From: Kiritimatiellia bacterium
GTDB lineage: Bacteria; Verrucomicrobiota; Kiritimatiellia; RFP12; JBMNHG01
DNA length: 64,000 bases
Assembly (NCBI GenBank): GCA_050950285.1
Contig: JBMNHG010000003.1
Coordinates: 62,001-126,000, forward strand
Direction: 5' to 3'
Shown: positions 7,863-60,406 of the stretch, one piece after another
Numbering within the stretch: position 1 is the first letter of the stretch
Layout: each line of letters opens with the position of its first letter
The notes under the pieces: generated by a model
Databases searched by the model: none
Told to the model about the DNA's origin: nothing
Seen by the model: only the letters and a program-made list of their open reading frames with translations
Position numbers and translations under genes: made by a program

Positions 7863-8927
<1,065 letters not shown>

Positions 8928-12080: not shown

Positions 12081-12108
12081 CCCCCACATCCATCCCCAAA
12101 GGATCCGT

Positions 12109-12444: not shown

Positions 12445-12445
12445 C

Positions 12446-13042: not shown

Positions 13043-13057
13043 CCCCCGGAGTCCCCC

Positions 13058-15259: not shown

Positions 15260-15276
15260 GGAGGGCGGGAGCCGCT

Positions 15277-16221: not shown

Positions 16222-16231
16222 GTCGGCGTCC

Positions 16232-16903: not shown

Positions 16904-16909
16904 CGGGTC

Positions 16910-40425: not shown

Positions 40426-43400
40426 GTGAAGACACCAACCACAGACACCCGCCGTCACACCCGCCTTCCGGGCTTGATCGCCTTCATGCTCGCGATGTGC
40501 ATGAGCGCCCGCGGCGCACTCGTTATCAACGAGGTCTGCTACAAGAACTCGACCGTGCCCGACGAGACCGGCAACACCTCGCGAGACTGGATCGAGCTGT
40601 ACAACCCAGGCCCGGAAGCGGTGAACGTCCTGGGCTACGGAGTGTACGACAAAAAAACGTTCGACGCGAGCCAAGGGGCGCAGTTGCCCGACTACATCCT
40701 TCCGGCCGGCGGATTCCTCGTGGTCTTTGCCGACTCGGACAAACATACGGCCTGGACCAACAACACGCTGGATATCGCCGCGATTCCCGCCAACACGGCC
40801 TGGCGCTACAGCGCACCGGACAGCGCACCGCCAGCCGAATGGAAGGAGAGGACGTTCGACGACACCGCATGGGCGAGCGGAATCGCGCCGCTGGGCTATA
40901 ACGACGCGACCCTCGACATGGATTGCGCGACGGCCCTGCCATACGGCGCCGACCCCGCCGATCGCCACCCGACCGCCTATTTCCGCAAGACGTTCGATAT
41001 CTTCAAACCGTCCGCCGTGACCGGCCTTGTCGTCCGCGCGCGCATCAACGACGGCATGGTCCTCTACCTCAACGGCGAGGAACAGACGCGCGTCAACATG
41101 CCGGACGGCACGGTCTCTTACGACACGCTCGCCACGACGAGTGTACCGCCGACGCTCTGGACCAACTTCCTGCTTTCGGCCTCCGACCTCGTGGCCGGCG
41201 ACAACGTGCTGGCCGTCGAGGTCCACCAGGCTGCGGCGGACAGCGTCGACCTGATCCTGGACATGACCGTCACCGCGCTCGTCAACGAACGGGTGCCGAT
41301 CGTCCACGGTTCGTTCGGGCTCAAAAAGGAGGGCGAGGATGTCTACCTCTTCGAGCCCGGGCAGACGGGGACATACATCCAAAAATTCGAGAAACCCGCT
41401 GCAGAGCCTGGCGAGAACAAGTCCTATGGCTTCGTCGTCGACGGCGACAAAGGCGGTGCCCGCCAAGTCTATGACCGTCCGACCCCCGGCTTCTCCAACG
41501 CGACGACGCCCCCGCAGGGGTACGAGGTCACACTCGACAAGCCGACCTTTTCGGTCGCGCCCGGCTTCTACGCCGCCAACCAGTCCGTCGTGCTAAGCGC
41601 TGCGTCCGGCAGCACGATCTACTACACGCTGGACGGCAGCGATCCCTGGGACAGCGACACGTCGGTATCCAGCGGCACGTCGATTCCAATCGACGCCGTG
41701 GCACCGGCCACTTCCGGCCTCGCGTGGATTCGCACCAACCCGGCCGAGATCGGCTCCCGGGTTCCCGGCGCCGACTGGCGGGCGCCGATCGGCAGCGTTT
41801 CCAAGGCGGTGGTACTCCGCGCGATCGCCGTCAGTTCCGATGGCACCCAATGCTCGCCCGAGGCGCGCGGCACCTACTTCATCGGCCCCTCCTTCGCCGG
41901 CCGCACCCTGCCTGCGGTGGCGATCATCACCGACACGAACAACCTGTTCGGCTTCACCTCGGGCATCTACGTGCCGGGCAAGTGTTACGCCGACTCGCCG
42001 GAGGGCTACGGCCCGGAGCAGTTCGGCAAGCCCAACGCGAACTACCACCAGGACAACGACGACCAGGCCTGGGAGCGCCCGGTGCAGGTCGAGCTTTTCG
42101 AGACCGCGCAGGATACCGCCGCCTTCGCCCATAATACCGGCATGGCCCTGCGCGGCGGCAGCTCGCGTTCCCTCCCGCAGAAGACGCTCTACCTCATCTG
42201 CCGCAACAGCACATACGGCACCGACACCATCCACTATCCGCTCTTTCCCGGCGAGAGCGGCACGCGCTACAAACGCTTCCTGCTGCGCAACAGCGGCAAC
42301 GACTGGTACGGCCACGACGGCACGAACCAGGTGGTGTCCGGCGGCGTCGGCACGATGCTCAAGGACGCGGTCTTCCACCGCATCGTCAGGAACCTGGACA
42401 CCTCGGTCATGGCCTACCGCCCCGTCACCGCCTACATCAACGGCGAGTATTGGGGCATCCACAACCTGCGCGAGAGCTTCGACAAACACTACCTCGCCAC
42501 ACGCTACGGGCTGGATCCCGACAACATGGACATTCTGGCGCACAAGGCGGATGATACCGACCCGACCAAGGTCAAAATCAAGCGCGACGACGGCGACAAG
42601 AACAGCGACGAGGAGTACGAGGAGCTGATCGCCTGGATCGGGAGCCACCCGCTCTCGCAGGCCGGCAACTACGAGCGCGTGCAGACGGCCGCCGTGTTCA
42701 CCAACGCGAGCGGTATCGTGATCACCGGCATCGACGTCGCCAACCACGCCGACTACATCATCGCCGAGACCTTCTTCGCCAACACCGACTGGCCGATCAA
42801 AAACTGCGACTTCTGGCGGGCGCACGCCGACGAGAGCGACACCTGCGGCGCCTTCGGCGACACCCGCTGGCGCTGGATGCTCTACGACCTCGATGCCTCC
42901 GGCGAGAAGGGCGCGGACTTCAACATGTTCGCCTACCTCTCCGCGGACGACATGACGGGAACCAACGAGCCCGGATTCCTGATCAACCAGCTCTGGTCGA
43001 ACCCGGACTTCCGCGACTACTTCGTGAACCGCTACGCCACTCTGCTCAACACCACCTTCCGCCCCGAACGCATGGCCGCGATCATCGCCGATGCCGCCGA
43101 CGAAATCGCCCCCGAGATCGAGCGCCACTTCCGGCGCTGGGGCCGCGACTTCACGCAGGCGCAGTGGCGCGCCGCCGTGACCAACGTGCTGATCGATTTC
43201 ACCGCCACGCGCCATGCGGTCTCCTGGCAGCATCTCAGCGACCACTTCAACCTGGGCGGAACCGGCACCCTCACGGTGAACAACCACGACGCCGCAGGCG
43301 CCGGCGGACGCTTCATCGTCAACGGGATCGACATCACGAACGGCACCGAAGGCGTCGCCACGCGCGCCTCCTGGAGCGGCACCTTCTTCCGCGGCCTGCC

Positions 43401-43998
43401 GGTCACCGTCGAGGCCGTGCCCGACGACGGCTACGCCTTCGACGGCTGGGTCGGCACCGCCGTGACGAACCCCGCTCCCGGCCTTTCCGTCGGCGAGGCG
43501 CCGATCGTCCTGACCGCGCGCTTCCGCCCGCTTGGCGCGCCGGCCCACCAGCCGACCGGCTACGAGCGGTGGCAGCGCGACAACTACACGGAACAACAGG
43601 TTCTGGGCACCGGCGAGGCCGCCGCAGGCGCGCCGTCGGGCTGCGCCGGCATGAGCAACCTCGCGCTGTACGCCTTCGGCATGAACCGCTTCGACGGCCT
43701 GTCCGACGAGGAGCGGATCGCCCGCGCCCGCCTCTCCATCCACGCGCGGGGCAATGCGCTCTGGCTGGGCTACACCCGCCTCAACGACAGCTTCGACGAT
43801 GTGCGCTACACCCTCAAGGTCGCCTCTTCGCTCGCCGCACCCGTAACCTGGAGCGACGCCGCCACCGGCCCCGATCTCGATCCCGTGGCGCTGACCAACA
43901 TCCTGGACGCCTCGGCCTGGTCCTGCGAAGTGCGCCTGCCGCAGGCCGCGCCGGAACGGGCCCAGCGCTTCTTCAGGCTGGAAGCGGAGCTGCAGTGA
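40426..43998 (+). CDS. Secreted CotH-family kinase with lamin-tail and Fn3-associated/chitobiase-like domains
   Basis: LVINEV..DWIELYN (LTD); IYYTLDGSDP; WERP, LRGGSSR, LRNSGND, YINGEYWGIHNLRE, NTDWP, RWRWMLYDLD (CotH); C-terminal RFFRL. Confidence 0.88.
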   Translation: MKTPTTDTRRHTRLPGLIAFMLAMCMSARGALVINEVCYKNSTVPDETGNTSRDWIELYNPGPEAVNVLGYGVYDKKTFDASQGAQLPDYILPAGGFLVVFADSDKHTAWTNNTLDIAAIPANTAWRYSAPDSAPPAEWKERTFDDTAWASGIAPLGYNDATLDMDCATALPYGADPADRHPTAYFRKTFDIFKPSAVTGLVVRARINDGMVLYLNGEEQTRVNMPDGTVSYDTLATTSVPPTLWTNFLLSASDLVAGDNVLAVEVHQAAADSVDLILDMTVTALVNERVPIVHGSFGLKKEGEDVYLFEPGQTGTYIQKFEKPAAEPGENKSYGFVVDGDKGGARQVYDRPTPGFSNATTPPQGYEVTLDKPTFSVAPGFYAANQSVVLSAASGSTIYYTLDGSDPWDSDTSVSSGTSIPIDAVAPATSGLAWIRTNPAEIGSRVPGADWRAPIGSVSKAVVLRAIAVSSDGTQCSPEARGTYFIGPSFAGRTLPAVAIITDTNNLFGFTSGIYVPGKCYADSPEGYGPEQFGKPNANYHQDNDDQAWERPVQVELFETAQDTAAFAHNTGMALRGGSSRSLPQKTLYLICRNSTYGTDTIHYPLFPGESGTRYKRFLLRNSGNDWYGHDGTNQVVSGGVGTMLKDAVFHRIVRNLDTSVMAYRPVTAYINGEYWGIHNLRESFDKHYLATRYGLDPDNMDILAHKADDTDPTKVKIKRDDGDKNSDEEYEELIAWIGSHPLSQAGNYERVQTAAVFTNASGIVITGIDVANHADYIIAETFFANTDWPIKNCDFWRAHADESDTCGAFGDTRWRWMLYDLDASGEKGADFNMFAYLSADDMTGTNEPGFLINQLWSNPDFRDYFVNRYATLLNTTFRPERMAAIIADAADEIAPEIERHFRRWGRDFTQAQWRAAVTNVLIDFTATRHAVSWQHLSDHFNLGGTGTLTVNNHDAAGAGGRFIVNGIDITNGTEGVATRASWSGTFFRGLPVTVEAVPDDGYAFDGWVGTAVTNPAPGLSVGEAPIVLTARFRPLGAPAHQPTGYERWQRDNYTEQQVLGTGEAAAGAPSGCAGMSNLALYAFGMNRFDGLSDEERIARARLSIHARGNALWLGYTRLNDSFDDVRYTLKVASSLAAPVTWSDAATGPDLDPVALTNILDASAWSCEVRLPQAAPERAQRFFRLEAELQ

Positions 43999-44226: not shown

Positions 44227-44931
44227 GTGATGCCGACGAAAGGGACAGGGCGTTTTTGCCTTTGGACGTCCGCGGTGTTGGGCCTTGCGCTGTGCGGGGT
44301 CTGCCGGGGGGCGTTTACGATGCCGTTGGGCGGGAGTGTCGCGCGGCTGCTGGAGGCGTTGGGGGGCGTTTGCGGCTATTCCGCGAAGTGCGAGGCGAAT
44401 GGCGTGGAGGTCGCGCTTTCCGCGAGGGGGATCGAGGGGCGTTCCCCGCGCGCCGTGGCGGCGGAATGCGCTGCGGCGCTGGGCCTCCCCGGGGATGCCG
44501 TGCCGCTGGGCGGGGGGCTTCTTGCGCCCGTGGGCACGGATGGGGAGGATCGTCTCCTGCTGGTTCCGGACGGGAAGGGCGGTTGCGTGGCGTGGACGGT
44601 CGAGGGCGTGAAACGCGGCGTGCCGCGAAATCCCCCGCCGGAACGCGGCGTGCCGTTTTCCCCGCTGGCGGCGCCGGTGTTCCATGCGGCGAACCGGACG
44701 TCCGGGGCCACGCTGGCCGTGGGCGAGTCGGCCGAGCCGCCGGATTCGCTCCGGGCGAGCCAGGGTGCGCGGCTGGTGGCGGAGGGATGGGAGGCGCTGG
44801 ATCCCGGCGGCGACTCCGGGCTGGACCTGTACGTGCGGGGCGGGCGCCTGTGCCTGGTTTGGGCGGGCGCCGCGCCGGAAGGCAGGAAATCGCGGCTGGC
44901 GGTCTTTTGCCGTGGCATGGAGGCCCCGTAG
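44227..44931 (+). CDS. Hypothetical exported protein leading the Tad-like cluster
   Basis: N-terminal hydrophobic segment, stop 24 nt before cpaB; no recognised domain. Confidence 0.55.
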   Translation: MMPTKGTGRFCLWTSAVLGLALCGVCRGAFTMPLGGSVARLLEALGGVCGYSAKCEANGVEVALSARGIEGRSPRAVAAECAAALGLPGDAVPLGGGLLAPVGTDGEDRLLLVPDGKGGCVAWTVEGVKRGVPRNPPPERGVPFSPLAAPVFHAANRTSGATLAVGESAEPPDSLRASQGARLVAEGWEALDPGGDSGLDLYVRGGRLCLVWAGAAPEGRKSRLAVFCRGMEAP

Positions 44932-44955
44932 CCTGTATACTCTCCTCCAAGCATC

Positions 44956-45786
44956 ATGAAACAGAAAATCCTTCTCGTTCTATCCGTTGCCGCCGGCCTG
45001 CTTGCGATGTTCCTTACGCAGCAGTATTTGGCCGCGAACAACCGCAAGGTCGAAAGGCGCCTGGCGGAGATCGACCGGCGCTACGCCAAGATCGGCGTGC
45101 TTGCGGCGGGCCGCGATTTGCCGGCGGGGTCGATCCTGCAACGCTCCGACCTCAAGGTGCTCGACGTGGTGGCCAGCGGGGTGCGGGGGCATGCCGTTCC
45201 GGAGCAGGACGTGCAGCTCGTGATCGGCCGGAAGACGATCGCCCCGCTGCAGACGGCGTCCCCGATCTACTGGTCCGACCTCGAGGGCGGCGACCCCGCG
45301 CGACGCGGATTGGCCGGGGACATCACCCACCGCATGCGCGCGCTTTCCATCAACGTCTCCGGTGCCGCCGCCGTGAGCGGCATGGTGCGCCCGAACAACC
45401 GCGTGGACGTCATCGGGACCTTCACCTTCCCCTCCCGGACTGCGCCCGGCGAGATGGAGCTGGTGACGATGACGATCCTGCAGGACGTGACGGTGCTGGC
45501 GTGCGGGCGCGAAACCGCGAAGTCCCAGGTGGGTTCCGCCCGTTCCGGCGAGTCTGCTGCGGGCGGGTCCTACGGCACGGTGACGCTCGAAGTGACGCCT
45601 CGCGAGGCCGAGATGCTCGTTTTCGCCGAACAGATCAAGGGGCGTCTCGCGCTGGCCTTGCGCAATCCGGACGATGTCGATTACGAGAAAGAGCTTCCCC
45701 GCGTGAACTACGAGAAGATCGAGGAAGAGATCGAGCGACTGAACGAGCATCGCCAACGCGTTCTCCGCAACAAGCGCGACCGGTAG
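44956..45786 (+). CDS. cpaB: Flp pilus assembly protein CpaB/RcpC
   Basis: N-terminal TM, SAF domain (AGRDLPAG), MRALSI..VSGMVRPNNRVDV, ILQDVTVLA, VTLEVTP..LALRNP. Confidence 0.93.
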   Translation: MKQKILLVLSVAAGLLAMFLTQQYLAANNRKVERRLAEIDRRYAKIGVLAAGRDLPAGSILQRSDLKVLDVVASGVRGHAVPEQDVQLVIGRKTIAPLQTASPIYWSDLEGGDPARRGLAGDITHRMRALSINVSGAAAVSGMVRPNNRVDVIGTFTFPSRTAPGEMELVTMTILQDVTVLACGRETAKSQVGSARSGESAAGGSYGTVTLEVTPREAEMLVFAEQIKGRLALALRNPDDVDYEKELPRVNYEKIEEEIERLNEHRQRVLRNKRDR

Positions 45787-45832
45787 GCCAAACGGCCGCC
45801 GGGCTCCTTGGCCCCCGGTTCGAAAACGACCC

Positions 45833-47536
45833 ATGACCATCCTCCTCCAGATTCGCGACGCCTCCGGCGAAGTGTCCACGCGGGAGTTGCCGCCCGGCAA
45901 CTACTTCGTGGGGCGGGGCCCCTCCTGCACCCTTCGCCTGTCGGACCCGCTGGTGAGCGAGCGTCATCTGCTGGTGGCGGTGCAACCCTCCGGCGTTGCC
46001 GTGGAGGACATGGGGTCCAGCAACGGCACCTTCGTGAACGACGTCCCCGCGCCGCGGCGGGTGCCGGTTCGTCCGGGCGACCGGATCCGCCTGGGCTCGC
46101 ACACGCTGTCCTTCGTGGAGAAAACGGAGGGGTCGCAAGCGCCCGGGCCACCGCCCGCCGGGCGCGAAGCCCCCGCCCCGCCCGCGCCTTCGCCCGTTCC
46201 GGCGCCGCCCTCCGCGGCCGCCCCTCCGCCCGCCGCCTCCGCGGTCGCCACCTCCGTTTCCCGTGATCTCCGGAGCCAGATCCACCAGGAGCTGGTGCAG
46301 CGCCTGGACATCAAGCGTCTCACCACGGAGCGCGTGAGCGGCGAGGAGTTGCAGCGGCGCGCCCGGGAGACGATCGACGCGATCGTGGCGGACGTGCGGA
46401 AGAAGCTGCCTGCGGGCATCGATCCGGCAAAACTGGCGCAAGACGTCTTCAACGAGGCCTTGCGGCTGGGTCCGCTGGAGGATTTGCTGGCGGACGATTC
46501 GGTCACCGAAATCATGGTGAACGGGCCCCACCAGGTGTTCGTCGAGCGCCGCGGCCGCATCGAGCGCGTGGAGCAGGACTTCCTCGACGACGCGTCCGTG
46601 CTGGCCATCATCGAGCGGATCGTCGCGCCGCTCGGGCGGCGCATCGACGAGAGCCAGCCGTACGTGGACGCCCGCCTTCCGGACGGCTCCCGCGTGAACG
46701 CCATCATCGCGCCGCTTTCGCTCGTGGGGCCGTGCCTCACGATCCGGAAATTTTCGAAGACGCCGCTGCGCGATGCCGACCTGATCCGTTTCGGCACGCT
46801 CACCCCGCAGATGGCGGAGTTCCTCAGCGCATGCGTGAGGATGCGGAAGAACATCGTCGTCTCCGGCGGGACCGGCTCGGGCAAGACCACGCTGCTGAAC
46901 GTGCTGTCGTGCTACATCCCCGGGGACGAACGCATCGTGACCATCGAGGACGCCGCGGAGTTGCGGCTGGTGCAGCCGCACCTCGTGCGTCTCGAGGCGC
47001 GCCCCCCGAACATCGAGGGCCGCGGCGCCATCACCATCCGCGACCTCGTGCGCAACGCCCTGCGCATGCGCCCGGACCGCATCATCGTTGGCGAATGCCG
47101 CGGCGGCGAGGCGCTCGACATGCTGCAGGCCATGAACACGGGCCACGACGGCTCGCTCACGACGGTGCACGCCAACACCCCGCGCGACGTGGTGTCGCGC
47201 CTCGAGACGATGGTGATGATGGCCGGCATGGACCTCCCCTCCCGCGCCATCCGCGAGCAGATTGCCTCGGCCATCGACATCATCGTGCACGAGGCGCGCT
47301 ACTCCGACGGCGGGCGGCGCATCGCGCAGGTCAGCGAAGTGGTGGGGCTCGAAGGCACGCAGGTCGTGATGCAGGACATCTTCGCCTTCCAGCAGACCGG
47401 CCTGGACGCCGCCGGGAAGGTCGCGGGCTCCTTCCGCGCCACCGGTTCCGTTCCGACCTTCTTCCAGGACCTGGCGCCGCGCGGCATCCACCTCGACCCC
47501 GCCATCTTCCAGCCTTCCGGAGGAGGTGCGTCGTGA
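45833..47536 (+). CDS. cpaF: FHA-domain-fused Tad ATPase (CpaF/TadA)
   Basis: FHA motifs GR, SERH, SSNGT; Pro/Ala linker; [46 protein letters not shown]. Confidence 0.94.
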
Positions 47537-48426
47537 GCGCCGGGCTGGCCATGCGCCTGTTGACCGGGCTGGCCGCCGGGGTTTCCGCCGGCGGCCTCAC
47601 GGCGATCGTCGCGCACGCGCTGCGCGAAGGCGCCGCCGCCTACAACAGCGCCCATTCGAGCGAGACCTCCCGCCAGTTCGAAGACCTCTTCCTCTTCGTG
47701 CCGCCACGCCGCATCGCCGAGGCCGGATGGGCCTGCGCGGCGGCGGCCTTCCTGCTGGTGTCGATTCCCTTCTTCAGCGCCGCCTCGATACGCCAGACCC
47801 TCGTGGGCGTCGCTCTTGGCGCGGTGGCGGCCGCGCTCGCCCTGCAGGGCCCCCGCAAGCTGCTCGCGATCCTCCGCGTGCGCCGCCGCCGCCGCTTCAA
47901 CGACCAGCTGGTCGAGGCCCTCTCCCAGATGAGCAACGCGCTCAAGGCCGGCTTCAGCATCACCCAGTCCTTCGAGGCCATCGTGGCCAACGGCGAGAAC
48001 CCCATCTCGCAGGAATTCGACGCCATGCTCCGGCAGATGCGCGTGGGCGTGAGCTTCGCCGAAGCCCTCCAGAACCTCTCCCGGCGCGTCGGCAGCGAGG
48101 ATCTCGACCTCGTCTGCACCGCCATCGACATCGCGCGCCGCACCGGCGGCAACCTCACGGAGATCTTCGACACCATCGCCGCCACCATCCGCGAACGCAT
48201 CCGCATCGAGCAGCGCATCCAGACGCTCACCGCCCAGGGGCGCCTCCAGGGCTTGATCGTCGGCGCGATGCCGGCGGTGGTGCTCGCCGCCATGGTGCTG
48301 CTCCGCCCCGGCACCACGCTCCCCTTCCTCCGCTCCTTCCAGGGAATGGCCTGCATCGCAGGCGTCCTCATCCTCATGAGCCTCGGCGCGTTCCTCATCC
48401 GGAAGATCATCCGCATCGACGTGTAA
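47533..48426 (+). CDS. tadB: TadB-like inner-membrane platform protein (T2SSF)
   Basis: FNDQLVEAL..ALKAGFS, TGGNLTEI, TAQGRLQ, KIIRIDV; GTGA overlap with cpaF. Confidence 0.9.
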   Translation: MSAGLAMRLLTGLAAGVSAGGLTAIVAHALREGAAAYNSAHSSETSRQFEDLFLFVPPRRIAEAGWACAAAAFLLVSIPFFSAASIRQTLVGVALGAVAAALALQGPRKLLAILRVRRRRRFNDQLVEALSQMSNALKAGFSITQSFEAIVANGENPISQEFDAMLRQMRVGVSFAEALQNLSRRVGSEDLDLVCTAIDIARRTGGNLTEIFDTIAATIRERIRIEQRIQTLTAQGRLQGLIVGAMPAVVLAAMVLLRPGTTLPFLRSFQGMACIAGVLILMSLGAFLIRKIIRIDV

Positions 48427-48447
48427 CCCCCCTGCCAACCACCGCCC

Positions 48448-49359
48448 ATGACCCTTCTCCTGTCCATCACGGCCACGCTTGCGTGGGGATTTGCGATCGC
48501 CGGCCTCGTCTGGTGCTGCGGCAGCCTCGCCCGGCAGATCACCTACGTGACGCTCGCGGACGGCCGCCGGGCGGAGCGAAAGCTCCCGCTCTCGTTCCGG
48601 CTGCTCCTCCCGTTCGCCCCGAACGCGACGCCGCTCGTCTCCGGCCCCGCCTTCGCCCGCGCACGGCAGGAGACCGACTCCCGGCTCGCCTCGGCCGGGT
48701 TCGACGGCCTGCTCTCCTCGACCGAATTCCTCGCCCTCCGCATCCTCCATCCCGTGGTGCTCGGACTGGGCTGGACGCTCCTCATGCTGTTCTTCTCGAG
48801 GGTGGACGACACCCTGCGCGACTACGCCGGGCTCCTCTCCCTCGCCGGCATCCTGCTCTTCGCCCTCCACCCCATCCTCTGGCTCCGCTCCGCCGTCCGC
48901 GCCCGCCACCACTCCATCCGGCGCGCGCTCCCCTTCCTGCTCGACCTGCTCACCCTCTCCGTCGAGGCCGGCATGGACTTCATGAGCGCGCTCCAGCGCA
49001 GCGTCGACTCGCGCCCCCTCGACCCCCTCGGCGAGGAGGTCATCCGCATGAGCCACGAAATCCAGCTTGGCACGTCGCGCCGCGACGCCCTCCGCGCGAT
49101 GGGCGCCCGCATGAACCTGCCCGAACTCCGCTCCGTGACCCAGGCCCTCGTCCAGGCCGACGAACTCGGCGTGAGCATCGGCTCGACCCTCCGCATCCAG
49201 GCCGACCAAATGCGCCAGAGGCGCTTCGCCACCGCCGAGAAACTGGCCAACGAGGCCCCCGTGAAACTCCTCGGCCCCCTCATGCTGTGCATCTTCCCCG
49301 CCGTCTTCATCGTCCTGCTCGGCCCGATCCTCAGCCAGGTCATGGGCAATCTCCTCTGA
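48448..49359 (+). CDS. tadC: TadC-like inner-membrane platform protein
   Basis: LPFLLDLLTLSVEAG, QADELG, AEKLA..APVKLLGPL..IFPAVFIVLLGP. Confidence 0.92.
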   Translation: MTLLLSITATLAWGFAIAGLVWCCGSLARQITYVTLADGRRAERKLPLSFRLLLPFAPNATPLVSGPAFARARQETDSRLASAGFDGLLSSTEFLALRILHPVVLGLGWTLLMLFFSRVDDTLRDYAGLLSLAGILLFALHPILWLRSAVRARHHSIRRALPFLLDLLTLSVEAGMDFMSALQRSVDSRPLDPLGEEVIRMSHEIQLGTSRRDALRAMGARMNLPELRSVTQALVQADELGVSIGSTLRIQADQMRQRRFATAEKLANEAPVKLLGPLMLCIFPAVFIVLLGPILSQVMGNLL

Positions 49360-49369
49360 GGCCCGCACC

Positions 49370-50704
49370 ATGCCAGACTCCCAACCCACCCGCTTCCACC
49401 TGCTCGTCGCCAAGGGGCCCCACGTCGGCCGGCGCATCGCCGTGCCGCCGGGCGGAGCCTCGCTCGGACGCTCCAGCGCCAACGACATCCCCATCGACGA
49501 TCCCGCCCTCTCGCGGCGCCACTGCCGTTTCGAGTTCCACGAGGACGGTTCGCTCTGGGTGCTCGACTTCGGCAGCGCCAACCAGACCCTCGTGAACGAC
49601 CGCCCCGTCACCGAGACATGCCTGATGCCCGGCGACCGCGTCCTCGTCGGCGACACCCTCCTCCAGGTGGTCGAGGCGGAGCCCGCCGGCGCGCCCGCCG
49701 ATACGCCCGCCGATGCCGGCGGCGACACGCCCCGCCCCCACTCCATCGACCTCGGGTTCGGGAAGGCGGAAGGCCCTGCGGATTCGAAGCGCCTCTCCCT
49801 GCGCCCCGTGGTCTGGACCATCGCGGCCGCGGCCGTGCTCCTGCTGGGATGGGCCTTCTTCTTCCGGGACGACCCCGGCGAGGCCGCCGGCCGCGCCCGC
49901 CCCGCGCCCGCCCCGCGCAACCCCCGCTTCGTCTCGCTCCGATACGAGAAGGTCGAGGCCTCCACCAACAACATCTTCCGCTACGAGATGACCCTCTCCC
50001 CGGACTTCACGCTCGCCGTGAAGATCGACGACCTCGCCGAAAACCGCCACGTGCGCGAGGAGAAGGTCGTCGCCTCGAACCTCGTCTACGCCCTCGCCCG
50101 CGAACTCGAGTCCAGCGGCTTCTTCCAGCTCGACGAACTCTACGCCGGCATCCCCCGCGACGGGATGTGGAACACCTGGGACCTCCAGGTGGTGGTGGAC
50201 CGCCGCGCCCGCCGCTGCAGCGTGCGGAACCGCGTCGAGCCCCGGCTCTTCCAGGACATCCGCGAGCGCCTCGAGACCTTCGGCAAGAACGAACTCGGCA
50301 TCTGGGCCATCCAGTTCTCGCGCGAACGGCTCGTCGAACTGGCGGACGACGCCTTCCGCCTCGCCCGCAAGAAGCAGGACGAACGCGACGTGGCCTACGA
50401 GAACCTCGCCACCGCCATCCGCGCCTACAGGGAGGCGGAGTTCTACCTCGACACCGTCGAACCCAAGCCGGAGTTCTACCCCGAAATCGTCGCCGGCCTG
50501 CGCGAGTCCATCGAGGAACTGGACCGCCGCCACGCCGAGCAGCGCTTCCTCGCCGACCGCGCCATCAACCTTTCGAACTGGAAGGAAGCCGCCGCCGAAC
50601 TCCGCGTGCTGCTCGCCATGATCCCCGACCGCGAGGACGAACGCCACCGCGAAGCGGAGCGCAAGCTCCTCGACGTCGAAAACCGCTTGAGATGGAGGAA
50701 GTGA
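49370..50704 (+). CDS. FHA-domain bitopic membrane protein with TPR-like helical C-terminus
   Basis: N-terminal FHA (LGRS, SRRH, SANQT), single TM (VVWTIAAAAVLLLGWAFF), helical tail. Confidence 0.85.
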   Translation: MPDSQPTRFHLLVAKGPHVGRRIAVPPGGASLGRSSANDIPIDDPALSRRHCRFEFHEDGSLWVLDFGSANQTLVNDRPVTETCLMPGDRVLVGDTLLQVVEAEPAGAPADTPADAGGDTPRPHSIDLGFGKAEGPADSKRLSLRPVVWTIAAAAVLLLGWAFFFRDDPGEAAGRARPAPAPRNPRFVSLRYEKVEASTNNIFRYEMTLSPDFTLAVKIDDLAENRHVREEKVVASNLVYALARELESSGFFQLDELYAGIPRDGMWNTWDLQVVVDRRARRCSVRNRVEPRLFQDIRERLETFGKNELGIWAIQFSRERLVELADDAFRLARKKQDERDVAYENLATAIRAYREAEFYLDTVEPKPEFYPEIVAGLRESIEELDRRHAEQRFLADRAINLSNWKEAAAELRVLLAMIPDREDERHREAERKLLDVENRLRWRK

Positions 50705-50705
50705 C

Positions 50706-52043
50706 ATGAACCGCCGCCTGCTCCTCTTCGCGTCGGCCGTGCTGGCCGCCGCATTCCCGCCCGGGGGCGAAGCCGCGGGGGAAGCGTCCGCCACGGCCGT
50801 CCTCCACGTCTCCTCGGAACCCGCCGACGCGCAGGTGCATGTGAACCACCAGCTCCGAGGGACCACCCCGCTGACGATCGAAGGGCTGGCCGCCGACACA
50901 TGCCTCGTGACCATCCGGAAGCCCGGCTTCGAGGACGTCCATCGCACGGTCTCGCTCCTTGCGGGGGTCCGCCACCCCGTCCAGGTGGAGCTCGAGCCGC
51001 TGCGCGGCCTCCTCCTCGTGACAAGCGCGCCCGCCGGCGCGGAGGTCTCGATCGACGGCGCCGACTACGGCACCACCCCGCTGCTGGTCCCGTCGCTGCG
51101 CCTCGGGACCTACCGCGTGCGCCTCTCCGCCCCCGGATTCCAGGCGAAGGAGGCGGAGGTCGAATTGACCGACCGCACCCCGCGCCAGGTGTCGCTCGAC
51201 CTGGCGTCCGACTCCGGAACCCTGCACGTCTCGAGCGAACCCGGCGGCGCCCGCGTGATGCTGGACGGCATCCCGCGCGGGACCGCCCCGTGCGCGATCG
51301 ACCGCATCCCGGGCGGCGACCACGAACTCGAAGTGGGCCTCGATGGCTACGTGGCGCAGAGGCAGACCATCCGCCTCGCCGCAGGCGAAACGCAGTCCAT
51401 GCGGATCTCGCTCGCCCCGCAGCCCGCCGCGCTGCAAATCGTCTCCATCCCCGACGGCGCCCGCGTGTACGTGGACAACCAGTTCCAGGGCGAGACCCCG
51501 CACTCGCTGCTCGACCTCAAGCCCGGCGAGTACCGCGTGCGTGTCGAAATGGCCGGGCACGATCCGCAGGCCCGCAACATCGCCCTCTCCCGCGGGGAGC
51601 GCAGGGTGGAGGAGTTCCGCCTTTCCGCGAACACGGGGCGCCTTGAAATCACCACCGAACCGGCGGACGTGACGGTGCTGGTGGATGGACGGAAGGCGGG
51701 CGTGACCTCCGCCAAGCCGGACGAGACCACGAGCGTCTCGTCGCCCTTCCCGGTGGAGGCGGTCCCGGCGGGCGAGCACGAGCTGCGCTTCGTGCGAAAG
51801 GGCTACTTCGAGAAGACGGAGAAGGCCGTCCTCCAGCGCGGCGTCACCACCACCCTCCACGTGACCCTCCAGCGCCGCTTCATCCCCGATTACGAAGTCA
51901 CCACCGCCAACGGCGTCTACCGCGGCGTCCTCGTCGCCGAAGGCGTGGATGGCCTCCGCCTCGAGACGCGCCCCGGCGTCGAGCACTCGTTCGCCTACAA
52001 GGACATCGTCTCGCGGAAGGTCCTGCGCGAAGAAGAGGAGTAG
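50706..52043 (+). CDS. Exported PEGA-repeat protein (about 5 PEGA domains)
   Basis: Signal peptide; repeated VSSEP.GA.V.vDG...G.TP..G.Y/H....GY/F units. Confidence 0.9.
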   Translation: MNRRLLLFASAVLAAAFPPGGEAAGEASATAVLHVSSEPADAQVHVNHQLRGTTPLTIEGLAADTCLVTIRKPGFEDVHRTVSLLAGVRHPVQVELEPLRGLLLVTSAPAGAEVSIDGADYGTTPLLVPSLRLGTYRVRLSAPGFQAKEAEVELTDRTPRQVSLDLASDSGTLHVSSEPGGARVMLDGIPRGTAPCAIDRIPGGDHELEVGLDGYVAQRQTIRLAAGETQSMRISLAPQPAALQIVSIPDGARVYVDNQFQGETPHSLLDLKPGEYRVRVEMAGHDPQARNIALSRGERRVEEFRLSANTGRLEITTEPADVTVLVDGRKAGVTSAKPDETTSVSSPFPVEAVPAGEHELRFVRKGYFEKTEKAVLQRGVTTTLHVTLQRRFIPDYEVTTANGVYRGVLVAEGVDGLRLETRPGVEHSFAYKDIVSRKVLREEEE

Positions 52044-52086: not shown

Positions 52087-53274
52087 TCAGGGCTTTTCGA
52101 CAACGCCGCAGAACAGGACGACGCCGGTCCGGTCGTCCCGGAGGACGACGACGAAGGGCCGGTCCGCCCGGAAGAGCTTGTACTCCGGCGGGGGAGGCGG
52201 GAGGCTCGTCGCTCTCACCAGGATGGCCGTCGCGGCGGCGGCCTCGGTCTTTTCCTCGTCGGCACGGAGGCGGGTCGCGTGGATGACGCTGTCGATGTAC
52301 AGGTCGCGCGTGCCGCCGATGCCCGAGAAGTCCGCGCGGGCGGAGAAGGGGGTCGCCATTCCAAGCTTCTCCAGCAGCGGTTCGATGGCGGCCGAAAACT
52401 CGATGTCGAGCTTCGGAAGCCACACCTTGACCGCCGCGTCCCCCTGGTCCAGCCATGGGTCGAGGGCGCCTTCGGAGAGCCGCTCCAGCGTCCGCGCGAT
52501 GGAACCGCCCTCCGCGTCGGGGAGGATGGCGATGAAGCGGAAGCGGGGATCTTCATAGGGCAGGGCGATGCCCCGGATCGCGGCGTCGGCGTCTTCGAAG
52601 TAGCCGGCGCGGTCGAACGCCGCGTGCATCAAATCCACGTCGCCCGCGGAGCCGTCCCCCCGCGTGAAGGGCGCTTTGCGGGTGTTCTCCCGGGGGAACT
52701 CCACCCTCCACTTCGCGCGGAAGTAGAGGGTGTTCACGAGGAGGAGCTTCGTGCCCGGGGAAATGGCGTCCGCCGCGAGGAGGGAGGGGATCATCTCCCC
52801 GGTCGTCCGCGACACGAAGCGATTGATGTCCGACGCGGCCTTCGCGGGATCCCCGAAGTCCGTCGGGAAGACGCCCGCGCCGAAGGTCGCCCGGATGGCG
52901 TTCCGGTACTCGGGGAGCAACGCCTGGCCGAGTCCCACCCAGGCGGAATTGGAGGTCAGCGCCTTCGCCTGGGCCGACGACTGGATGGATTGGCCGATCT
53001 CGCCCAGGAAGGCTCCCGCTTCCTCGGGAAGGCCGAGCACGGATCGGATTTCCGCTTCGGTCTCGCCCTTCGCCCCCAGCCAGACGAGGCCGAAGGCCGA
53101 GTTGATGCTGTAGGGCGAAAGCAGGACGTTCCCGGACCCCCCGGCGTCTTCGACGGCCAGGCGGAGGAGTTCGAAGCCCCGCGTGTTCATGGCCGCGACG
53201 GCCTCGGGCGAGGCGGCGAGGCCGCGGGCCGCCACAAGCGAGGCGGAGACGATGGCGAGGGGGAGGATTCGCAT
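52087..53274 (-). CDS. Secreted serpin
   Basis: NVLLSPYSI, GAKGET, INRFV..T.EMI, VNTLYFRAKW, LPK, hinge EEKTEAAAAT, FRADRPF. Confidence 0.93.
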   Translation of the reverse strand: MRILPLAIVSASLVAARGLAASPEAVAAMNTRGFELLRLAVEDAGGSGNVLLSPYSINSAFGLVWLGAKGETEAEIRSVLGLPEEAGAFLGEIGQSIQSSAQAKALTSNSAWVGLGQALLPEYRNAIRATFGAGVFPTDFGDPAKAASDINRFVSRTTGEMIPSLLAADAISPGTKLLLVNTLYFRAKWRVEFPRENTRKAPFTRGDGSAGDVDLMHAAFDRAGYFEDADAAIRGIALPYEDPRFRFIAILPDAEGGSIARTLERLSEGALDPWLDQGDAAVKVWLPKLDIEFSAAIEPLLEKLGMATPFSARADFSGIGGTRDLYIDSVIHATRLRADEEKTEAAAATAILVRATSLPPPPPEYKLFRADRPFVVVLRDDRTGVVLFCGVVEKP

Positions 53275-53362: not shown

Positions 53363-56300
53363 TTACCAGTCGAGCGCTTCGACGGCGCGGAGGCAGTCCT
53401 CGGGCTGGCTGGCGCCGAGGACGAGCTGTCGCCCGGGCGCGAGCCGGGCGCTGTGGCGGCCGTCGGCCCGGGAGAGGCAGGGAAGCGAGAGCATCACGAG
53501 GGAGCGTCCCATGCCGGGGAAGTCCTGGTTCACTTCGAGCGGGAGCCACCCGCATTCGCCCTGCAGGGAGATGAACCCGTACATGAGCCCGTTGTCCTGG
53601 CAGTTGCCAAGGAGGATGTCCGCATGGACGGGGGGCGCGCCGTAGCCGGGCCATCCGTAGCCGTCCATGTAGTCGTCGCGGCAATTCTCGACGCGGGCTC
53701 CGGCCATGGTCACCGAGGCCGTCACGCCCAGGCGGGTGCGCAGGCGTTCGGCGAGGAGGTTCGCGGCGGGGAGGAAGCGGCGGTCGCCGCAGCCGATGAG
53801 GACGCCTTCCTTCTCCCGCAGCCGCTCGAGGTAGGCGCGGACCTCTTCGGGGTGGTGGATGGTGACACCCGCCGGCAGGACGTCGCCGGCGGAGGCCTCG
53901 GCCACGCGGGCGCGAACGGCCTCGGGGGTGTCGCCGGCGGGCGGGGTTTTGCCGAAGAGCCGGACGGAGCCGCCTGCGGTGACGGCGAAGACGGCGGACT
54001 GGGCGGCGGGGATCCACGTGGCGAAGCGGAGGCGCGCCGCGTCCGCAGGCTGGTCGCCGGAGGCTTCGCGGGCGGGGATCGCGGTGAAAGGCACGGGGAC
54101 GCCGAGGCGGGCGTCCACCACGAGCCCGGCGCCGGCGGCGGGGGCTTCGGGCACGGCGACCTCTGCGGTGAGGATGGCGCCGGCGAGGGTGGAGATGAAG
54201 TATCCGCGCTCCCACATGTAGTTGATTTCGGTGTTCGCGATGCCGACGTAGAGGGCGTCGACGCCTTCGCGGCGGCGCGGGAAGCAGTAGGAGGCGCGCA
54301 CGGGCGTCTCTTCCTCGAACATGTACTCCTGGTAGTTCGGGCCGTTGCGGTACACGTGGTACCAGTCGGGGTCGTCGCCGCGCTGCGACCGCAGGTAGCG
54401 GCCGCGGACGAGCACGGCGGGCCGCACGACGCCGCGGCGGGCGAGCTCGCGCTCCACCCATTGCTCGTAGCGCTTCTGCTCCATGTTGCGGTTCGGGTTG
54501 CGGTGGTGGGTCAGCCCGAGCGCGAGTTCGTAGGGCGCGGATTCCCAGTATTCGAAGCCGAGGGGGAAGCCGCACAGCAGGGACTCGCCGTCGCCGAAGC
54601 GGTGCTCGACGATGGCGGGCTGCGTCTTCGCGCCATCGTACCAGGCGCGCGGCGTGCCGTCGCCCGCGGCGAGGACGGCGGCGAGGCCGGTCTCGAACTT
54701 GTAGGAGCGCGGGGGGAGGTTGCCGCCCTGGAAGCAGCCTTCGGGATGGGTGGTCTCGAGCTTGTCGGGCTGGACGGGGCCGGGCTGGCGCATGGCGGCG
54801 AGGTCGGCGCCGAAGACGTCCGCCAGGGGCAGGGACGCGCGTTCCGTGCCGTCGGGCGCGAAGCGGCCCGGCGCACCGAAGCCGAGGAGGATGCCGCCGG
54901 AGCGCACCCAGTCGCGGATGATGGCGCAATCGGCGTCGTCCATCGCCTGGCAGTTGGGGAGGACCAGCACGCGGTAGCGCGGCAGTTCGGCGGCGAGCCG
55001 CGCGTCGCCCACGTAGGCGAAGGGCGTGTGGATGCGCTGGAGGAGGTGGCCCCACGCCATGGCGCTCTTGTAGGTGCTCTTGCGCGAGCGGCGCAGGCTG
55101 TCCTGGCTCCACAGGATGGCGACTTCCGCATCGACGGGCCGGGTGTTGAGCAGGACGGGGGCGATCTGCGCCATGCGGAGCGGGGCGATCCAGTGGTTCC
55201 CGATGCCGCTGTCGCCCAGCTGGCGGTCGGGGTAGCGGAACCACGATCCGGGGAAGAGGGCGCGCACGGAGCGTCCCTGGTTGCCGTGGACGAGGTGCAC
55301 CGAGTCGTAGAAGGGGGCATGGGAGGCGGCGGAGGATCCGCACATTCCGCAGCCGGAGTGGATCATGTGGTTCCAGAGGGGGCGGCCGTCCGCGAGGCTC
55401 CGCAGCAGGACGAAGCCGGCGGGGCTGTCGGTGGCGGTGCTTTCGACGTCCGGAATCGCGGCCAGGGCGTCGAAGTCGCGCGAGAGGCCGGTGTGGCCGT
55501 CGATCATGCGGTGGAAGTCGTCGCTCGCCACGGGCAGCTGCACGCGCACCCCGGGCCAGCCGGCCTTGAGGGCGTCGCGCACGGCGGACAGGGATTCCAC
55601 GAGCCAGCGTTCGCGGAAGGCCTCCGCGCGAAGGAACTCCGGCGTGCCGCGCCCGAGTTCCTCCGGGGGAATCCAGCGCGTCGTGTTGCCGGCGGCGCGC
55701 CACCCGGCGGCAATGGCGTCGGAGACGTCGGTCACGGCCTCCGTCTCGACGCGCGAATCGATGGAGATGGCGTCGATGGACTCGGCGGCGGTGTCGCGCA
55801 GGTGGGCGGCGTAGGCGGCGAGGAAGGCGGCGTAGGCGGCGCGCGTGGGCTCGTGCGAAAGGTTGATGCCCACGAGGTTCGTCTGCACGCCGCCGGTGCG
55901 GTTGTCGCGCGCGGGCACGTGGAGCCGGCAGGCGGCGCCCTGTTCTTCGGCGAACCAGTCCGGCGGCGCGCCGTTGAAGGTGCGGAGGCGCGGGACCATG
56001 CGCATCCCGCGCCCGGCAAGCAGGGCGACGGCGCGGTCGAGCGCCGCGAAGTCGTAGACGCCGCGCGACGGCTCCATCGCGGCCCAGTCGCACGCTGCGG
56101 CCCAGTCCACCTCGGCGAAGCGCGCGCCGAGCGCCTTCGCCTTGTCCGCCATGTACGCGAGGTCGGCGTCGGACTGCCCGAAGAACGCGTCGTCCATCGT
56201 CCATCCATACTGCAGGCCCGCCTCGCGGGAGGCCTCGCGCACCGGATCGTCCGTCCACGGCATGGGCTCGGAGACGATTTCGAAGGGGCGCGTCTCGGCG

Positions 56301-56794
56301 GCCTTGGCGCGGACCTGCGCCACGAGCTCCGCCTTGAGCGCGACGGCGCGGTCGTAGAGCGAAAGCGCGTCCGCCGCGGCGAAGCGGCGCGCCGCGGCGA
56401 CCAGGGCGAGCTGGCCGGCATCGGCGGCGGGCGGTCCGGCGGAGGATCCGTCATCGCCGCCGCTCTCGCGCGGAAGGCGGCGCGCCTCGGATGCCTGCGC
56501 GTCGCGAAGGGCCTGGAGCGCCTGGCCGCCATGGTCTGCGGCCCGGATCACGCCGTACAGCCCTTCGGCCTCGACCATGAGGGTGTCCGCCTCGGGATCC
56601 CGGGCGGGACCGCCCCAGTCCTTCAGGTAGCGCGCCAGCGTCCGCACATCCTGGATCTCGGCGATGGCGGCGCGGTGGAGCTTCCGCACATCCTCCACGC
56701 GCTCCTGTTCGAGCGACACGCCGTCCGCGCGCGTCGCGACGGCGGACAGCAGGAAAAACGGCAGGGACGCCCAAAGGGACCATTCGCGTTTCAT
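53363..56794 (-). CDS. Large secreted GH42-like (beta-galactosidase-like) protein with trimerisation domain
   Basis: Signal peptide; WAAMEPSRGVYDFAALD, PPDW, AEVAILW, YRVLVLP..WVRSGG. Confidence 0.7.
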   Translation of the reverse strand: MKREWSLWASLPFFLLSAVATRADGVSLEQERVEDVRKLHRAAIAEIQDVRTLARYLKDWGGPARDPEADTLMVEAEGLYGVIRAADHGGQALQALRDAQASEARRLPRESGGDDGSSAGPPAADAGQLALVAAARRFAAADALSLYDRAVALKAELVAQVRAKAAETRPFEIVSEPMPWTDDPVREASREAGLQYGWTMDDAFFGQSDADLAYMADKAKALGARFAEVDWAAACDWAAMEPSRGVYDFAALDRAVALLAGRGMRMVPRLRTFNGAPPDWFAEEQGAACRLHVPARDNRTGGVQTNLVGINLSHEPTRAAYAAFLAAYAAHLRDTAAESIDAISIDSRVETEAVTDVSDAIAAGWRAAGNTTRWIPPEELGRGTPEFLRAEAFRERWLVESLSAVRDALKAGWPGVRVQLPVASDDFHRMIDGHTGLSRDFDALAAIPDVESTATDSPAGFVLLRSLADGRPLWNHMIHSGCGMCGSSAASHAPFYDSVHLVHGNQGRSVRALFPGSWFRYPDRQLGDSGIGNHWIAPLRMAQIAPVLLNTRPVDAEVAILWSQDSLRRSRKSTYKSAMAWGHLLQRIHTPFAYVGDARLAAELPRYRVLVLPNCQAMDDADCAIIRDWVRSGGILLGFGAPGRFAPDGTERASLPLADVFGADLAAMRQPGPVQPDKLETTHPEGCFQGGNLPPRSYKFETGLAAVLAAGDGTPRAWYDGAKTQPAIVEHRFGDGESLLCGFPLGFEYWESAPYELALGLTHHRNPNRNMEQKRYEQWVERELARRGVVRPAVLVRGRYLRSQRGDDPDWYHVYRNGPNYQEYMFEEETPVRASYCFPRRREGVDALYVGIANTEINYMWERGYFISTLAGAILTAEVAVPEAPAAGAGLVVDARLGVPVPFTAIPAREASGDQPADAARLRFATWIPAAQSAVFAVTAGGSVRLFGKTPPAGDTPEAVRARVAEASAGDVLPAGVTIHHPEEVRAYLERLREKEGVLIGCGDRRFLPAANLLAERLRTRLGVTASVTMAGARVENCRDDYMDGYGWPGYGAPPVHADILLGNCQDNGLMYGFISLQGECGWLPLEVNQDFPGMGRSLVMLSLPCLSRADGRHSARLAPGRQLVLGASQPEDCLRAVEALDW

Positions 56795-56886
56795 GGCACA
56801 ACCTCCGATGTCGATGAGGATAGCATACCTCCGGCGCCGTTGTCCCCGAAGAAAACGCGCGGGGGGGGCGGCGCGCCGCCCGCATG

Positions 56887-59800: not shown

Positions 59801-60237
59801 ACGGGAGACGCCAGCCCAGGCACGCGCACGCGGACGATGCCCAGTTCGTCCAGCCCGCCGCGGAAGCGGCCGCCCAAGAAGTTCCCCCGCTGGATCGTCG
59901 AATACGACTCGGTGAAGAAGAGAAACGGATGGCCGTCGGCATCCCGGACGAGCGCGTTCATCAAGGTGGGGCAGATCGTGCCGAGCGCGGCGTCGAAGAA
60001 GACATCGTGCCCGTCGGGAAGCACGATCGGTTCCGTCAACAGCAAATCATGCCGGGTCTCTCCGCCCGCCGGCGCCAGACCCGCCGCCAGCCACCCCGCC
60101 TCCGACGACAGGGGAAGCGGATCCCCCTCCACCCTCCAGGCCCCGGGCCCGGCCAGCCGTTCCATCGGCGTCGTCTCCGCCCAGGCCGCTCCCAACGCGA
60201 AAACCGCCATCGCCACTGTCATCCGTGCGTTTCCCAT
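56887..60237 (-). CDS. Large secreted GH42-like (beta-galactosidase-like) protein
   Basis: Signal peptide; WNECEPLQGVYDFSVID, PPEWV, HPGLLGY..SE, FRAAMRKRY.TI..NRAWGT.F.SF, DW..FR. Confidence 0.75.
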   Translation of the reverse strand: MGNARMTVAMAVFALGAAWAETTPMERLAGPGAWRVEGDPLPLSSEAGWLAAGLAPAGGETRHDLLLTEPIVLPDGHDVFFDAALGTICPTLMNALVRDADGHPFLFFTESYSTIQRGNFLGGRFRGGLDELGIVRVRVPGLASPVPESFRPLDAGHRTPVPPFAFLGLRLERKEALEQDTALYLSNFRVTGADFRTEPFYYGFKDAEYFGAADGAPALRPTDFGRIWGDRHLLDWELRATYDGQPLLCGNRTFEFAPDDATPFKLRFAGALRLPALPEGTYWIRAKLRSGFQGEAPAFLRELEFRYDVFRNASPDPLPEAPIPAGARIGAGHIRIAPERPSFTWGAEEAWRTTVRFFDAAGCTARIEVAAGDGRVLLAREHALDAGEATIPLDLSTLPPGAYTVTARLVSPSGATLDTLARLVGRRSRPSDAARFRRPADTPDWRDIRDGPEQLVLFCPMIHDPARTVEHYANLFDEMVASGVSRAAEIQTSWNECEPLQGVYDFSVIDGVLDEAAARGIRCFVTFAPLAPPEWVPSHFTRDAEGYRFGHTAYLFHGGRFNLFQDPQGRRAALDYLRALVLHVRNHPGLLGYFYISEHSGEAPWAGWYEGFDPDTLANFRAAMRKRYRTIARANRAWGTAFGSFDAVRPPSVRDEAPMAFRRDWLLFRRNGIYDFILESAKTIRDLDPHRIVMVYLDGVINTRLSELAAFGVISANGGCAVPESTFLQGAYAEAGVPQRAEEISCTQWSWIPFQLDRSLFNMMGGGGANGHWKMFIPQDAKFADLRREPHSLDRFESFIPLWRELREARPVFGDIRIWAGFEGQLVRSRSVNTAGLDCGGWEARAFLDAQLPLGMNATPAWKKAKCVLVSPGQTILSAAEADDLARFARKGGTLFLTADSGRRIIGHEGEDWCLLRRLGFGAPLSEAWDVRHDLQADAAGAWADRGDLRVNVRTSFEPPQDAGEALLRRLDDGVPGLTRKRVGKGRAYVLWYNAVVPHGESGREASGSFFREIARDAGAALPVETSTRLFWTHLLRKGADTWYLLVTSRDQVPDAGTIRLSLPDGDYRVSEAITGRGFPGTSAAALAETGFETRLGYNEVQVWRFERIPPEAPAP

Positions 60238-60330
60238 GGGGTAGAGTATCGACGATTCCGCAGTCCAAGGGAAGGGATTTCGCTCCCGTCGCATGGGATC
60301 GGCCCGGCGAGCCTCGCAACGCGGCTTCGG

Positions 60331-60370
60331 AAAAAGAAAACGGCGCGCCGCGAAATTCGCGGCGCGCCGT
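60331..60370 (-). terminator. Intrinsic terminator of the beta-barrel gene
   Basis: ACGGCGCGCCGCGAA-t-TTCGCGGCGCGCCGT followed by a U-rich tract on the minus strand. Confidence 0.85.
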
Positions 60371-60406
60371 CTGGTTCGGGATTCCGGGTTGGCCGGACGC
60401 GGGGAC

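Follow-up and report, generated by a model that had tools for sequence, protein, structure and literature searches.

The question raised by this locus was whether a bacterium of the class Kiritimatiellia carries a Tad (type IVc) pilus machine related to the Kil prey-killing system of Myxococcus, and what such a machine could do there. The window, the whole 64,000-nucleotide stretch that was analysed, comprises positions 62,001–126,000 of contig JBMNHG010000003.1 of the Kiritimatiellia bacterium genome GCA_050950285.1 (4.05 Mb, 99.35% complete). An earlier note, made from the letters alone, had described seven tightly packed co-oriented genes, and plus-strand open reading frames do fill positions 44,227–52,043 in the order g1, cpaB, FHA-cpaF, tadB, tadC, g6, and g7 (Table 1), with gaps of 24, 46, −4, 21, 10, and 1 nt; the seventh gene, which that note left unnamed, is g1. 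Because the next gene is a serpin gene on the opposite strand, we take the operon unit to end at g7. The sequences suggest that the machine belongs to the same Tad sub-lineage as Kil. What it does is less certain; our best reading, held with about even confidence, is a pilus for contact or surface attachment that has a single conserved tip, a borrowed secretin, and an envelope arm made of g6 and g7.

Kil is encoded by MXAN_3102–3108 and MXAN_4648–4661 in M. xanthus (PMC8460266, PMC12075869), needs the secretin KilC, and operates with four tips and a type III secretion system that has no needle (T3SS; PMC8460266, PMC12075869, PMC12428579). In the descriptions given by Seef et al. and by Herrou et al. 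(PMC8460266, PMC12075869), Kil-type Tad systems are restricted to predatory deltaproteobacteria; the latter survey searched 38,791 genomes with kil profiles (PMC12075869). The literature on Tad in Kiritimatiellia and Lentisphaeria, Kil in Verrucomicrobiota, MXAN_4649, and the Mago nashi fold in bacteria appears to hold no account of the present system and no work devoted to MXAN_4649; Supplementary Data 1 of Herrou et al. may list these genomes. For comparison we used 33 loci, nearly all from Myxococcales, found with a pattern from the published kilF primer, and, from M. xanthus AM003, kil cluster II; MXAN numbers follow from gene position as tabulated in supplement 18 of PMC8460266. A kilF locus like that of Myxococcus also stands in BNCN01000010.1, which is titled Comamonas sp. 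and may be mislabelled.

Two accessory genes and the gene order tie the locus to kil cluster II, a stronger relation than the earlier note could see. A profile of the g6 periplasmic part hit the protein encoded after tadC in that cluster (L204:10918-12369) at E 6e-18, and the helical domain of g6 matched the MXAN_4649-position protein at 99.8% in HHalign. The g6 profile matched 46 of 121 Myxococcota genomes; in the best 30 Myxococcota loci so found, an FHA domain lay on the same frame in 29 and tadC lay directly upstream in 21. Among the best 120 of the 298 matches in the last g6 homologue search, only Kiritimatiellia, Myxococcota, and Deltaproteobacteria names occurred. For g1, the match to the MXAN_4657 family (HHalign 82.8%, E 9.3e-6 over 162 columns; reversed control E 0.47) was significant only as a profile comparison, and comparisons with single Moraxella or Myxococcus sequences were not significant. 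The Myxococcota order tadG-4657-cpaB-tadB-tadC-4649, without the ATPase, was found in 8/20 loci, and its last four genes in 16/20. In a tree of TadB, TadC, and CpaB, the clades of the Planctomycetes-Verrucomicrobia-Chlamydiae (PVC) group (99/100) and of Myxococcota (100/99) were joined at 93/91; the tree held nine other rows, several of them long, and the node was not starred.

The likeness to Kil extends to the FHA-fused ATPase, to a Flp and a second Flp-like pilin, to a three-part tip, and to the order tip pilins, MXAN_4657-like gene, cpaB, tadB, tadC, FHA-transmembrane gene; in both systems TadZ and TadD were not found and the core genes can be spread across separate loci. The present locus differs in that the ATPase gene lies between cpaB and tadB, and in that g6 has a middle domain of predicted Mago nashi fold and is followed by a PEGA partner gene, both of which the kil loci are without. 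Searches of the host genome for the KilC secretin, the KilA peptidase, KilD, and MXAN_4648 gave only generic secretin and FHA matches; FlhA/SctV (PF00771), the marker of the needleless T3SS, was absent; and one tip set was found rather than several interchangeable ones. Killing, one of the roles that the earlier note thought possible, is thus not supported.

The ATPase itself was less decisive. Its core was 58–64% identical to 29 KilF cores and 46–55% identical to 13 plasmid CpaF cores. From 229 CpaF cores, a FastTree phylogeny was made with 186 and an IQ-TREE phylogeny with 57; the bootstrap of the latter was unsettled (0.924), and both IQ-TREE runs used LG+G4 and no mixture model. No Bdellovibrio sequence was identified among the rows of the trees. 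The PVC ATPases formed their own clade (95/99) within a larger grouping of ATPases fused to FHA or TadZ (99/85), outside the canonical, CpaE-associated CpaF. The PVC clade stood in a polytomy, and a clade joining it with KilF was neither supported nor rejected. A large set of CpaF representatives of about 700 amino acids (P0201, P0179, P0158, P0157) with an N-terminal ParA/MinD (TadZ-like) domain grouped with the FHA-fused ATPases. An FHA domain on CpaF, which the earlier note had treated as a Kil signature, is not diagnostic: the CpaF of a Moraxella bovis plasmid and 50/147 further CpaF representatives also carry one, and FHA-CpaF is therefore an old, wide type.

The N-terminal FHA domain of the ATPase has intact phosphothreonine-binding motifs (GR27, SERH42, NGT64), with Walker A at 345, and g6 is, as had been noted, a second FHA protein (GR/SRRH/NQT) that would cross the membrane by a hydrophobic stretch at about 147–165, judged by eye. 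The complete R/S/H/N motif was present in the ATPase of 16/19 loci in the host order, this one included, and of 28/28 KilF, and in 0/10 loci of other orders and 0/10 of the sister class (one of them a paralogue). In g6 it was complete in 31/32 loci of the host order, 1/3 of other orders, 7/9 of the sister class, and 28/30 of Myxococcota. The phosphorylation gating suggested earlier may thus apply to the ATPase in the host order and is not general, because within the PVC lineage the intact motif is limited to that order; since its motif is kept more widely, g6 appears to be the more constant phospho-reader. The host genome has eight kinase domains above cut-off. Its four FHA genes are all accounted for, two of them in the locus; the other two encode fusions of FHA to a sigma-54 activator and to a MoxR-type ATPase (C6:334531-336066 and C8:394567-396030; C numbers denote contigs of the host assembly).

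A model of g6 residues 171–444 had a pLDDT (predicted local distance difference test) of 90. Its β-sheet domain at about 186–314 matches the Mago nashi fold (Z 15.5, root-mean-square deviation 2.6, 123 residues aligned, Foldseek E 7.7e-7), and its C-terminal part is predicted to be a TPR/MIT-like helical domain. By sequence, the periplasmic part had no match in the Protein Data Bank (PDB) under E 0.02, and weak Pfam matches to DUF6438 (9/41 members) and Emfourin (3/41). For the middle domain (window positions 49,880–50,310), these weak links suggest a wider bacterial family of the Mago fold. The likeness to Mago nashi of the exon junction complex (PDB 1hl6/1oo0) is one of fold and may reflect homology or convergence: identity is 16–19%, the bacterial domain is predicted to be periplasmic, and its predicted partner is PEGA rather than RRM.

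The exported protein g7, a PEGA-repeat protein in the earlier note, has five PEGA stretches, and its C-terminal 62 amino acids had no Pfam match. Complexes were predicted with three chains, g6, g7, and CpaB, and with three controls. The g6–g7 pair scored 0.71, and the best of the three controls 0.00; the mark for this score is reached by 116/157 solved complexes and 2/215 mismatched pairs, counts that are only roughly applicable here. Runs agreed on at least 91% of the predicted contacts, partner pLDDT was at least 83, and the contacts predicted with confidence lay between the Mago-fold sheet of g6 and PEGA repeats 1 and 2 of g7. Between g6 and CpaB there was no confident predicted contact, and the score was 0.00 with g7 replaced, which is not evidence against contact. 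We know of no solved complex like this pairing of a Mago fold with PEGA.

The pair was also inherited together. Downstream of g6, g7 followed in 29/30 host-order loci. Among genomes with a CpaF orthologue 27/28 had g6, as against 1/20 without CpaF and, weakly, 1/9 with paralogues alone; these genomes are kin and so not independent, and the split also runs within families. Because of this co-inheritance and the adjacency of the genes, we assign g6 and g7 to the Tad machine, and the complex model agrees with the earlier suggestion that they form an envelope accessory. In myxobacteria the counterpart of g6 differs in its middle domain and no PEGA gene follows it, which is consistent with g6 and g7 being a lineage-specific pair.

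As had been reported, the seven-gene unit itself encodes neither a pilin nor a peptidase, secretin, or CpaE. The search for flp pilins in the rest of the genome, proposed at that time, found five pilin-type genes at other loci: two Flp-like pilins and a tip set of one TadE-, one TadG-, and one TadF-like gene (lineage-built profiles, which very divergent tips could escape). A pilin-like gene, Flp with a GQTMVEY motif, TadE, and the TadG-like gene occupy C2:281220-278492, and the third minor pilin lies at C2:458743-459288. Scores for PF04964 were below cut-off and those for PF07811 above it. The tip set was 44–49% identical among closer relatives. In 12–14 of 39 relatives' loci the same pilin genes stand directly upstream of g1 and cpaB. 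From this placement we infer an ancestral unit of pilin, flp, tadE, tadG, tadF-like, g1, cpaB, FHA-cpaF, tadB, tadC, g6, and g7; and because the pilin genes are encoded elsewhere here and beside g1 in many relatives, the locus does not appear to be decaying. The end of the TadG-like pilin (C2:278492-280039, minus strand) is formed by a CxxC...C stretch with a Gly-rich tail of the consensus GGGTRRGH, kept in both classes; its model was poor (pLDDT 62.5), with no fold match above Z 5.8. A dedicated TadV/CpaA peptidase was not found, the sole A24 peptidase of the host genome being of the PilD type with A24_N. No TadZ/CpaE orthologue was found (four CpaE queries gave one weak match, E 2e-5).

Omp85 proteins and six secretins in the genome indicate that the host is a diderm. 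The RcpA N-domain PF13629 was absent from the host genome, and RcpA and KilC queries against that genome gave only secretin-domain matches of 22–35% identity. Among relatives bearing the system, PF13629 was present in 9/79 and absent in 70/79, and the M. xanthus control was positive. In seven of the nine positive relatives its gene lay beside a second cpaB or cpaF, as in one paralogous locus (L135) with the usual order cpaB-secretin-cpaF; the other two have three CpaF matches each. No main locus encoded a secretin (0/39). Five of the host secretins lie beside genes of the type II secretion system (T2SS) or type IVa pilus (T4aP), the one at C2:826k being classed by its T2SSF neighbour, and one is GspD-like and standalone. 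Each of the 39 Tad-positive genomes tested had 2–14 other secretin matches, and none was free of secretins. Since no Tad-type secretin is encoded, we infer that one is borrowed from a T2SS or T4aP. The genome also has eleven further PilB/PilT/GspE-type ATPase matches, so that with the six secretins (contigs C2, C3, C6, C8) its repertoire of type IV filaments is unusually rich; sister-class genomes had 5–14 secretin matches.

CpaB matches occurred in 60/61 genomes of the host order (strong in 57/61) and the g6 C-terminal part in 56/61, and the system is retained in genomes down to 1.7–2 Mb. Judging by these counts, the locus is near-universal in the host order; we take it to be vertically inherited. 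In the phylum, CpaF matches with E no higher than 1e-60 occurred in 138/301 genomes, paralogues included. The CpaF matches listed fall in the host class and a few further families, a sister class that is probably Lentisphaeria, and the earlier attribution to a PVC lineage holds, the ATPase homologues bearing Kiritimatiellia and 'Lentisphaerae bacterium' names. Gene order, whose conservation the earlier note had wished to see examined, extends across both classes: cpaB-cpaF-tadB-tadC-g6-g7 was intact in 3/10 loci of other orders and 9/9 of the sister class. Host-order genomes mostly have the unit split: g6-g7 stood beside cpaB in 2/20 loci of 20 kb, and tadC preceded g6 in 14/30. A DUF192 gene stands between tadC and g6 in seven sister-class loci (L127-L133; for example, L130 7206-7655), and no other neighbour recurred in more than 3 of the 39 relatives' loci. 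A DUF192-like match also occurs elsewhere in the host genome (C2:139234-139584).

The genome thus encodes a motor, a platform, CpaB, a pair of Flp-like pilins, and a tip set of three parts. In a pilus built from them, serving to touch surfaces, particles, or adjacent cells and not to kill, the single PilD-type peptidase would mature the pilins, FHA-CpaF would polymerise and retract the fibre on TadB/C through a CpaB ring, and the fibre would exit by way of a borrowed T2SS or T4aP secretin. The g6 protein would span the inner membrane, read cytoplasmic phosphothreonine through its FHA domain, and hold g7 through the Mago-fold domain as a periplasmic arm positioning or anchoring the machine. The FHA domain of the ATPase could also bind phosphothreonine in the host order; elsewhere in the lineage its key Arg is lost. 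Several results weigh against this account. None of the three host secretins profiled (of six; 20 Tad-negative versus 40 Tad-positive genomes, at strict E cut-offs that can miss distant orthologues) tracks the locus: the standalone GspD-like secretin occurred in 12/20 versus 20/40, the second PilM-linked one in 1/20 versus 5/40, and the PilQ-like one in 14/20 versus 25/40. Tad secretins are monophyletic in the account of Denise et al. (PMC6668835), which reports little secretin transfer between filament systems and ties secretin loss to monoderms, so borrowing by a diderm would be unusual. The predicted g6–g7 interface was no more conserved (0.45) than the rest of the two domains (0.46 and 0.40). 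No kinase is linked to the locus, a single kinase gene having been seen among the relatives' loci. In the CpaF tree KilF lay nearer the Moraxella FHA-CpaF group (81/82); the approximately unbiased (AU) test did not reject a clade of PVC ATPases and KilF (p 0.14).

Should the fibre stay inside the outer membrane, the machine would be a short periplasmic piston or an envelope-sensing filament, with g6-g7 as a scaffold or a link to a non-secretin pore. The secretin results above, namely the empty main loci, the missing RcpA N-domain, and the lack of co-variation in a host that is diderm by Omp85, all point in that direction, and a run of five PEGA repeats might bridge the periplasm. The tip set is nevertheless complete, its TadG-like pilin being large, as in surface pili, every Tad-positive genome tested has other secretins, and the profiles covered three of the six host secretins; we consider this alternative unlikely, though the likeliest after the surface pilus. 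A Kil-like device for contact-dependent killing or antagonism would explain the accessory genes and order common with kil cluster II and the sister position in the platform tree; the AU test leaves the clade with KilF unrejected, and the related Moraxella FHA-CpaF locus adjoins an RHS gene. Against such a device, there was no KilC-type secretin, KilD, or FlhA/SctV and no MXAN_4648 orthologue beyond FHA, and there was one tip set as against four in Myxococcus (PMC12075869). The absence of neighbours other than DUF192 that recur in more than 3 of the 39 loci and the retention of the system in genomes of only 1.7–2 Mb argue in the same direction. Killing thus seems distinctly improbable, all the more so as the lineage is known for polysaccharide fermenters and is not known for predators.

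Tad pili of some bacteria are said to take up DNA, and the core, single-copy inheritance seen here would fit a competence pilus. No comEC/comEA-like gene recurs beside the locus, in a set of clusters not all of which were annotated and with competence genes not profiled, and we rate this role slightly lower again than killing. That the locus is an ordinary adhesion Tad with unrelated neighbours, or a decaying remnant, is very improbable: the frequent splitting of the locus, with g6-g7 seldom beside cpaB in the host order, agrees with it, but g6-g7 still follows tadC in nearly half of those loci, is lost with CpaF, and accompanies a CpaF outside the CpaE-associated group, and this copy of the locus contains no stop codons.

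A broader history, which we propose only tentatively, is that the Kil sub-lineage of Tad is older than the predatory myxobacteria and became, in Kiritimatiellia and the sister class, a diderm Tad machine independent of any Tad secretin; there the Mago-fold/PEGA arm of g6 and g7 would take the place of the secretin-pilotin module and either recruit a foreign secretin or anchor a filament in the periplasm, with g6 exerting phosphothreonine control. Found in two Verrucomicrobiota classes, a colinear sister system would part an ancestral scaffold (FHA-ATPase and the MXAN_4649- and MXAN_4657-like proteins) from predation additions (KilD, several tips, the needleless T3SS), and it singles out two little-studied kil genes, MXAN_4649 and MXAN_4657, as likely structural parts. 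It would also be a diderm Tad without an RcpA-type secretin, where the published view ties such absence to monoderms, and it offers a bacterial domain predicted to have the Mago nashi fold, with a predicted partner.

Set beside the canonical Tad/Cpa systems of Caulobacter, Aggregatibacter, and Pseudomonas (PMC6668835), the machine shares Flp, TadE/F/G, CpaB/RcpC, CpaF, TadB, and TadC, and differs in the FHA domain of its ATPase, in having g1, g6, and g7, and in having no RcpA secretin, TadZ/CpaE, TadD, or TadV/CpaA. The Tad locus of the Moraxella bovis plasmid NZ_CP087831.1 resembles it in FHA-CpaF, in the absence of CpaE, and in a similar Flp (E 4e-18), and, like the sister-class loci, carries DUF192 behind tadC; in contrast to the present machine, the plasmid locus encodes an RcpA-type secretin, adjoins an RHS gene, and has no g6 or PEGA gene. 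That locus (1994-17236) holds the FHA-CpaF Tad genes with secretin, DUF192, and TadE, the RHS-repeat gene following directly, has a DUF2235 gene upstream, and is possibly tied to antagonism. The Bdellovibrio Tad (bioRxiv 10.64898/2026.07.08.737194) is similar in its dispersed genes, often separate tadC, and PilD-processed pilins, and differs in its TadZ-TadA fusion and RcpA secretin.

Table 1. Genes of the Tad locus and its two flanking genes (window positions)
Gene	Position	Strand	Basis and remarks
CotH kinase protein	40426-43998		large, exported-looking; lamin-tail and Fn3-associated domains
g1, small, probably exported, family not assigned	44227-44931	+	distant homologue of M. xanthus MXAN_4657-position protein
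CpaB/RcpC periplasmic alignment protein	44956-45786	+	TIGR03177 162 bits (cut-off 71); PF16976 (RcpC), PF08666 (SAF)
FHA-CpaF (TadA) motor ATPase	45833-47536	+	PF00498 at 24-88, PF00437 (T2SSE) at 212-485; TIGR03819 356 bits
TadB inner-membrane platform protein	47533-48426	+	PF00482 (T2SSF)
TadC inner-membrane platform protein	48448-49359	+	PF00482 (T2SSF)
g6, FHA, transmembrane helix, Mago-nashi-fold and TPR/MIT-like helical domains (predicted)	49370-50704	+	FHA 31-94; MXAN_4649-position counterpart
g7, exported, five PEGA repeats and small C-terminal domain; predicted g6 partner	50706-52043	+	PF08308 (PEGA) x5
Serpin	52087-53274	minus	PF00079, E 1e-83; signal-peptide-like start; convergent with operon

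The g1 gene lies upstream of cpaB in relatives too. For g1, Pfam and NCBIfam gave no matches and the signal peptide is a by-eye judgement; its structure-atlas model resembles AF_1845 START-like clusters (TM 0.67–0.78). No serpin gene was found among 40 relatives' loci, and the CotH gene upstream of g1 had no synteny there. Beyond the serpin gene, large GH42-like glycoside hydrolase genes occupy the minus strand at 53,363–60,675, where a long open reading frame (53,363–59,557) appears to be a shadow frame joined to a real gene. Elsewhere in the assembly, contig C9 (5854 bases) has a G+C content of 34%, compared with about 66% in the remainder, and is possibly foreign.

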